Source: Escherichia coli (GTDB taxonomy: Bacteria; Pseudomonadota; Gammaproteobacteria; Enterobacterales; Enterobacteriaceae). Taken from it: a DNA stretch of 64,000 bases. Of the stretch, positions 2,823 to 3,032 are shown in pieces. The notes under the pieces were generated by a model, which saw only the letters and a program-made list of their open reading frames with translations, was not told the origin of the DNA and did not search any database. A program made the position numbers and the translations under genes. Positions within the stretch are counted from its first letter, which is position 1; each line of letters starts with the position of its first letter. Location: the NCBI RefSeq assembly GCF_965641715.1, contig NZ_OZ282453.1; one strand, written 5' to 3'.

Positions 2823-3032
2823 TTAGTTAGAGTTAATTAGCTTATCAATCTCTGTAAGAGGTAAAGTTGTCACCTCTGCAACGTCTTCCCGAGACATCCC
2901 TTTACTTAGAAAACGCTGGGCGAATTCCTGTCTTACCTTCTGGAGTTCCTCTTGATATCCCTTCTGAAATCCCTTCTCTTCAAACCACTGCGCCAACGTC
3001 TGCCTGGTTTCTCTCCGTGTCTTTATTTCCAT
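2823..3032 (-). CDS. Small protein (69 aa) homologous to the C-terminal tail of the adjacent Rpn-family protein; free-standing RpnS-like ORF
   Basis: Protein shares TLAQWFEE.G ... KGMSREDVAE..LPL.EIDKLIN with the RpnC C-terminus; its 3' DNA (about 2823-2905) is about 80 percent identical to the rpnC 3' end (3101-3185); own AAGGGA RBS-like motif 5 nt upstream of the ATG. Confidence 0.55.
   Translation of the reverse strand: MEIKTRRETRQTLAQWFEEKGFQKGYQEELQKVRQEFAQRFLSKGMSREDVAEVTTLPLTEIDKLINSN

Follow-up and report, generated by a model that had tools for sequence, protein, structure and literature searches.

Beside the nuclease gene rpnC, some Escherichia coli chromosomes carry a short open reading frame (ORF) that looks like a spare copy of the nuclease's own tail, which raises the question of whether this copy acts as a second dose of antitoxin for its neighbour, serves some other purpose, or is left-over DNA. 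We addressed this in a 64,000-nucleotide stretch of the E. coli contig NZ_OZ282453.1 (assembly GCF_965641715.1), hereafter the window, the first 6.5 kb of which correspond to the yadC-panB-panC / rpnC(yadD) / panD-yadE region and match strain PapM-32-1 at 99.8% identity over the query. Here panC (1876–2727, plus strand) is convergent with rpnC (3101–3973, minus strand), which encodes a full-length 290-aa Rpn nuclease (RpnCL; TIGR01784, E 6.5e-80) and is annotated as such in RefSeq at the 99.8% identical locus (L001). An intact ORF of 69 aa with an ATG start (MEIKTRRETRQTLAQWFEE...DKLINSN; 2823–3032, minus strand) lies between panC and panD, 68 nt downstream of rpnC. The sequence leading up to its ATG is TTAAGGGAACCT, the minus strand reading AAGGGA (3042–3037), ACCT, ATG, and this Shine-Dalgarno-like hexamer is kept in every allele aligned, including those of E. 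marmotae. The initial annotation had placed the same motif 5 nt before the ATG; the motif itself stands, and the distance is right to within 1 nt, being 4 nt after the hexamer and 5 after its GGG core.

The product of the ORF is clearly derived from the end of RpnC. BLASTP aligned its residues 4–67 with residues 235–290 of RpnC, the extreme C-terminus, at 40/64 identities (63%, E 1e-21) with one 8-residue gap, and the segments TLAQWFEE, KGMSREDVAE and LPL.EIDKLIN are common to both proteins, as had been noticed when the homology to the adjacent nuclease was originally proposed. At the DNA level, 2831–3000 aligns with rpnC 3103–3248 on the same minus strand, with 127 of 146 ungapped positions identical (87%) plus 24 nt of gaps in the repeat tract, equal to two 4-aa repeat units; the local alignment score of 163 is far above chance (17.9 ± 2.1 for shuffles). 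A MAFFT alignment over a wider region gave 79% DNA identity, in good agreement with the figure of about 80 percent first estimated for the rpnC 3′ end.

Family searches with the ORF product reflect this partial relationship. The NCBIfam profile TIGR01784 covers it only at positions 213–273 of 273 (E 2.8e-8), the last 61 profile positions, with a score of 33.9 bits against a curated cut-off of 52.1. A full-length Rpn nuclease (PD-(D/E)XK, TIGR01784 / Transposase_31) was considered and rejected, as the N-terminal nuclease domain is absent and a length of 69 aa leaves no room for it. A Pfam-A scan of the protein returned no match at E ≤ 0.001, so membership rests on direct homology to RpnC; close relatives carry precomputed matches to PF27070 (HTH_Rpn_C), one of them marked 'weak'. 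PADLOC reported a weak match to the C-terminal 47 positions of RmrA (E 5e-4, 16.9 bits), which probably reflects a generic helix-turn-helix resemblance, and no match for RpnC itself.

These features identify the ORF as rpnCSs, a gene named and drawn by Zhong et al. (2023, PNAS 120:e2307382120, Fig. 2I; PMC10400941). It has therefore been known since 2023 and is no new discovery, the gene having already been named there. According to that work, translation also starts inside all five rpn genes of E. coli K-12, producing a small protein from the C-terminal region, RpnS, that serves as antitoxin against RpnL, the toxic nuclease of full length. A separate gene may likewise encode RpnS, and for K-12 rpnC both the internal initiation site and the translation of RpnCS were demonstrated (PMC10400941). 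Published RpnCSs groups with RpnCS in phylogeny, and RpnSs proteins likewise vary by 4-aa repeats, the repeats in this class of small proteins setting in 8–20 residues from the start (PMC10400941). The ORF studied here has the same hallmarks: homology to the RpnC tail, a separate gene directly downstream of its parent, a layout with its own ATG and Shine-Dalgarno motif after rpnC that recurs in 24 other loci, and variation, among alleles of 57–77 aa, by 4-aa units (FQKG, YKEG, LQKV, RQEV) from about residue 20. The initial annotation, made from the letters of the window, was thus right about both the identity and the origin of this RpnS-type duplicate, and its statement that toxic Rpn nucleases are restrained by small proteins from their own C-termini agrees with Zhong et al. 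A search of the later Rpn literature found nothing beyond that paper and its commentary, and the accessible part of the text of PMC10400941 gives no frequency, no expression or activity test and no neighbour repeat-length comparison for RpnCSs.

An AlphaFold2 model built on a 39-sequence alignment, at moderate confidence (pLDDT 71), predicts helices at residues 7–20 and 22–43 (with a break at 21), 48–55 and 59–67, which fits the published description of RpnAS as a three-helix bundle with a long first helix. Sequence searches of the PDB with the protein and with the 39-sequence profile did not find RpnA-S; the best match (residues 29–67) was the designed 'CAP repeat' protein 8vd6 (E 2.9e-6), through a motif, ..G.s.eeiAe.l.Ls..eI..Li, that is repeated five times there, and marginal matches fell on helix-turn-helix domains (DNA-invertase, RPC6). 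Foldseek against the PDB gave nothing at E ≤ 0.001, with RpnAS (7TH0) at rank 12 (E 7.9, TM 0.66 on target, 40 aligned columns), which is not significant. The weak PDB and PADLOC matches all fit a generic helix-turn-helix-like pair within the 30 residues at the C-terminal end. RpnCSs would be predicted to fold as a long first helix carrying the 4-aa repeats, followed by a small helix-turn-helix-like pair, and may dimerise through the long helix by analogy with RpnAS.

The alignments show that rpnCSs originated when about 250 nt, made up of the tail of rpnC with its 3′ flank, were duplicated in tandem, the two copies being homologous until ~16 nt past their stop codons (TAACTAAGTTGTCTGC vs TAACTAAATTGCCAGC). 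A duplication reaching further upstream than the TLAQWFEE codons (beyond 3000) was also considered, and the similarity to rpnC there, ~50%, is unconvincing. Within rpnC, the RpnCS frame (MMTLAQWFEERGRQEERQEF...DKLIN, 50 aa; 3101–3253, minus strand) begins at an internal ATGATG preceded by GGGAGGGGAG, and initiation at this site in the window is presumed by homology with K-12 rpnC. This internal start and its Shine-Dalgarno sequence (GGGAGGGGAGTCTATGATG) are gone from the free-standing copy, in which a new ATG lying ten codons further upstream, preceded by an AAGGGA motif of its own, now opens the frame and begins an MEIKTRRETRQ leader.

We then asked how common the gene is, using as query the 105-nt copy-specific junction of spacer and leader (2996–3100). 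The junction was found in 1555 of 5426 complete E. coli genomes (28.7%), with at least 95% identity in 1553 of them; it was always chromosomal and nearly always present once per genome, at 1558 places in all. A few genomes have two or three such places. One of these, NR3736 (NZ_AP040205.1), checked for a tandem array of free-standing copies, has two junction matches and yet an ordinary single copy at its panC–rpnC locus, so its second match lies elsewhere in that genome. ST131 and numerous further lineages carry the gene. K-12 (L003), where the duplicate had been proposed as something to look for and where 73 nt separate the stop codons of panC and rpnC, lacks it, as does O157:H7 (L016). In E. 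marmotae the same yadE-panD-rpnC-copy-panC layout is found, with a copy that starts MDIK.... An 814-nt metagenome contig (ENA ERZ27229452 k115_66508, L019) carries two tandem free-standing copies, at 42–221 and 290–499, upstream of panC: the first joins an MEIK leader to the window's in-gene-type tail (P0120) and the second is identical to the window's 69-aa ORF. The contig starts inside a repeated spacer, and this could be either a real array of three tails or an assembly artefact.

The RefSeq names given to the ORF are inconsistent. Among the loci compared for annotation (the window plus L001, L010, L013, L023 and L025) it appears as 'RpnC/YadD family protein', 'hypothetical protein', 'transposase' or a pseudogene, and PGAP flags some intact copies as 'incomplete; missing N-terminus' despite their own ATG.

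Evidence that the free-standing tail can move into rpnC came from a sequence assembled in silico, in which the window's rpnC body passes, at the shared TGGTTTGAAGAG, into the tail of the free-standing copy. The full 278 nt of this construct were matched at 100% identity and without interruption in two complete genomes, both of which annotate it as rpnC. One is AHM8C212RI (L029), which has the single-copy locus panD, rpnC (300 aa), panC, with an rpnC that ends with the rpnCSs tail. Its locus is collinear with the window at 98.5% identity save for a clean deletion of the 248-nt unit (2996–3243, minus strand) that comprises the in-gene tail, the spacer and the rpnCSs leader, so that the free-standing tail becomes the in-gene tail by one deletion between repeats. 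Other alleles point to exchange of ends: the 3′ end of the ST131-type copy, with its stop context, differs by 1 nt from that of an in-gene tail, and the single-copy tail of K-12 (..KVINLI) ends like the free-standing copies, whereas that of O157 is of the in-gene type. Together, these alleles document the fusion and deletion routes that Zhong et al. mention in words.

The surroundings of the ORF bear on whether it is expressed. In the spacer of 68 nt that lies between the end of rpnC and the start codon of rpnCSs (3033–3100, minus strand) our scan found no sigma-70-like promoter and no terminator-like site, the RNA fold has no stable structure (z = +0.86), and Rfam at a permissive threshold matched no family across 2600–4300. 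Co-transcription of rpnCSs with rpnC and rpnCS is then the simplest reading, as no promoter or terminator separates them. A lone promoter-like site on the minus strand (2848–2820; TTGATA, 17-nt spacer, TAAATT) lies inside the 3′ end of the ORF and faces the 3′ end of panC; promoter and terminator site counts in the region were no higher than in shuffles, so this site is probably due to chance. The sole structured element downstream of rpnCSs is a G+C-rich hairpin between it and the convergent panC (2732–2762; fold z = −1.95), which has no U-tract in the minus-strand direction and is likely the panC terminator. In O157:H7 SS52 (L016), an extra insertion of ~200 nt (~1062–1300), with no counterpart in the window, separates the panC stop from this shared hairpin and by eye resembles an ERIC/IRU-type intergenic repeat (..CCCCAGTCACTTACTTATGTAAGCTCCTGGGGATT..). 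Published ribosome profiling and tagging were done in K-12, a strain without rpnCSs. It is likely, at a strength we would put well above even odds, that rpnCSs is carried on the mRNAs of rpnC and rpnCS and uses a ribosome-binding site of its own for translation, and it is probably a translated RpnS paralogue.

The contrary view, that the ORF is an untranslated by-product of duplication, kept open by 12-nt slippage, youth or gene conversion and mattering only as DNA for recombination, has to be weighed against how the gene has been preserved. Among 24 loci sampled at even steps through the hit lists, 23 have an intact rpnCSs; in the one disrupted allele, that of strain E04, the frame shifts within four consecutive FQKG units. 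Of 26 loci, 25 keep a distance of 68 nt between the rpnC stop and the ATG. In the protein database, over 100 clusters of 55–77 aa carry the MEIKTRRETRQTLAQWFEE (MEIK) leader, and they differ by in-frame repeat units and by one 2-aa indel, which is 6 nt long, in frame and outside the pattern of repeat slippage. The intact alleles span up to ~20% synonymous divergence plus a second species, and an acquired ATG and Shine-Dalgarno motif, conserved in all alleles, replace the lost internal start; moreover, an independently arisen analogue, YpaA/RpnESs, is translated (PMC10400941). Part of this preservation is mechanical, because the frame survives slippage by 12-nt repeats, and since the non-coding spacer and the coding leader are equally conserved, conservation alone is no proof of coding constraint. 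Nei-Gojobori dN/dS over 47 non-repeat codons, with only 1–11 substitutions per pair, is mostly 0.2–0.7 among nine alleles and 0.2–0.6 against E. marmotae, which is only moderately below 1, and exceeds 1 in some pairs. These points, together with the E04 frameshift, the PGAP calls of a missing N-terminus and the lack of an own promoter in our scan, speak for the by-product; set against the intact frames, the new start and the indel outside slippage, we consider it improbable. A decaying pseudogene fragment, the alternative raised from the outset and the one implied by PGAP, is not supported, as only one of the 24 loci is frameshifted, the frame is intact in E. marmotae too and the copies said to miss their N-terminus are intact ORFs.

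If rpnCSs is translated, one proposal, in line with the main idea of the initial annotation, is that its product would attach to the C-terminal domain of the neighbouring RpnCL and hold the nuclease in check in trans, adding to or buffering RpnCS. It is homologous to RpnCS, which blocks RpnCL; it lies directly downstream of rpnC, probably on the same mRNA; and the TLAQWFEE and KGMSREDVAE...DKLIN segments are conserved between both proteins. What counts against this is the repeat tract. Measured between WFEE and LxKGM in the two proteins encoded at every two-copy locus, the helix-1 tract of the window is 26 residues in the free-standing protein against 18 in the in-gene one, an 8-aa difference, and its composition differs as well (FQKG/YQEE/LQKV in rpnCSs vs RQEE in-gene). 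Across the sampled loci the free-standing units are FQKG/YKEG/LQKV and the in-gene ones RQEV/IQEV or IEKG/MEKG, and the tract lengths are equal in none of 17 distinct intact pairs, the differences ranging from −32 to +16 residues and failing to be a multiple of 4 in nine of the 17. In the published experiments, one KGIE repeat added to RpnCS abolishes its block of RpnCL, and putting the same repeat into RpnCL restores it (Fig. 4D of PMC10400941). Taken with the absence of any length match, this makes RpnCSs probably non-cognate to the adjacent RpnCL and hence probably not an extra dose of its cognate antitoxin, by extrapolation from one published +1-repeat experiment with overexpressed K-12 proteins. 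A second dose for the neighbour is accordingly doubtful, with roughly one chance in four left to it in our estimate. An actively maintained mismatch was also considered and set aside, since the length ranges overlap little and 0/17 is indistinguishable from independent variation; we do not claim avoidance. In E. marmotae, two genomes (L017 and L018) have in-gene tails that differ by four IEKG units (74 vs 90 aa from the internal start) and an identical free-standing copy, the in-gene tract being the one that changes faster in this species.

A partner might instead be sought elsewhere, with RpnCSs acting as an orphan antitoxin that neutralises another Rpn paralogue or an incoming RpnC allele, or as a decoy that titrates a phage factor targeting RpnS tails. 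RpnC alleles with exactly this tail do exist in other strains, as do alleles with other rpnCSs-type tails (e.g. P0096 and P0064), and a phage factor has been proposed as the driver of tail variation (PMC10400941). That factor is purely proposed, however, and RpnAS and RpnBS do not cross-protect between paralogues (PMC10400941). Besides, there is no tail-like sequence in the 64-kb window beyond the two at rpnC, and window-like genomes show only one place at megablast sensitivity. We regard an orphan or decoy role as unlikely, somewhat less probable than the second dose and more so than the by-product.

Our main reading, to which we assign a probability of about 0.85, is that the ORF is rpnCSs, a second, separately encoded RpnC C-terminal small protein that is probably translated, non-cognate to its neighbour and a spare tail module. 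Its best-supported role would be as such a module in the turnover of the RpnC C-terminus. If the two repeats that encode TLAQWFEE recombine, 248 nt would be deleted and the rpnCSs tail installed in the gene, changing the toxin's C-terminal domain and the intragenic antitoxin in one step, and gene conversion may also move 3′ ends between the two copies. RpnCSs, for as long as it stands free, would be cognate only to RpnC alleles with that tail. A more far-reaching version, which we offer tentatively and think less likely to hold than to fail, is that rpnCSs is not the neighbour's inhibitor but a stored alternative specificity module, the 248-nt deletion acting as a phase-variation-like toxin-antitoxin switch, possibly promoted by the Rpn nuclease itself, with immunity in the meantime only to RpnC alleles that carry the stored tail. 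Fusion, deletion and recombination of the copies are mentioned in words by Zhong et al.; neither a systematic mismatch nor a switching logic appears in the accessible part of that text (PMC10400941).

What the present analysis adds to that work is the frequency among genomes, the integrity of the ORF, the comparison of repeat lengths between neighbours and the 248-nt fusion allele. The locus offers a natural experiment on what sets the specificity of Rpn toxin and antitoxin and how it changes, with three natural states: two-copy loci, whose tails are mismatched in each of the 17 distinct pairs sampled; single-copy loci whose tail ends like the in-gene type, as in O157-like strains; and single-copy fusions with the free-standing copy's tail, as in AHM8C212RI, the K-12 tail end also resembling the copies. 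These natural alleles would allow one to ask whether repeat length is a specificity code and whether the free-standing copy is active in its own genome.

Comparison with known systems places the ORF closest to the rpnCSs of Zhong et al., which is the same gene, a second rpnCS copy downstream of rpnC in certain strains of E. coli only, with 4-aa repeat variation and with loss through a deletion or a fusion with the N-terminal domain of rpnC; there is no difference in kind. The K-12 gene ypaA (rpnESs) is likewise a free-standing copy of an Rpn tail directly downstream of its parent, rpnE, and is translated, as seen by SPA tagging and ribosome profiling (PMC10400941). Unlike rpnCSs it occupies another locus and arose independently, from rpnE, according to the published phylogeny, and the accessible part of the text of PMC10400941 holds no report of YpaA activity against RpnEL. 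The in-gene RpnCS, to which RpnCSs is 63% identical, shares with it TLAQWFEE at the beginning of helix 1, the helix pair KGMSREDVAE...DKLIN and the kind of 4-aa repeat. RpnCSs differs in having a gene to itself, an 11-residue leader (MEIKTRRETRQ) where RpnCS has MM, with a new Shine-Dalgarno motif and ATG, different repeat units, a tract longer by 8 aa and a 2-aa C-terminal extension (SN), and in being free of obligatory co-evolution with the toxin's C-terminal domain. Free-standing RpnS genes of other bacteria (DUF4351 PF14261 / HTH_Rpn_C PF27070) likewise encode small, separate Rpn-tail proteins.

A broader parallel is offered by the orphan C-terminal toxin/immunity modules of cdiA and rhs loci, displaced or spare cassettes found downstream of the main gene; cassette and gene have a short homologous junction in common, and recombination of the cassette into the gene can change the specificity. 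The spare Rpn tail may be used in an analogous way. To our knowledge, these modules have no sequence or fold relationship to the Rpn tail, and the likeness is one of arrangement. The cargo differs too: the CDI/Rhs cassette consists of a toxin tip with a separate immunity gene, whereas the Rpn cassette is the regulatory, antitoxin tail itself.
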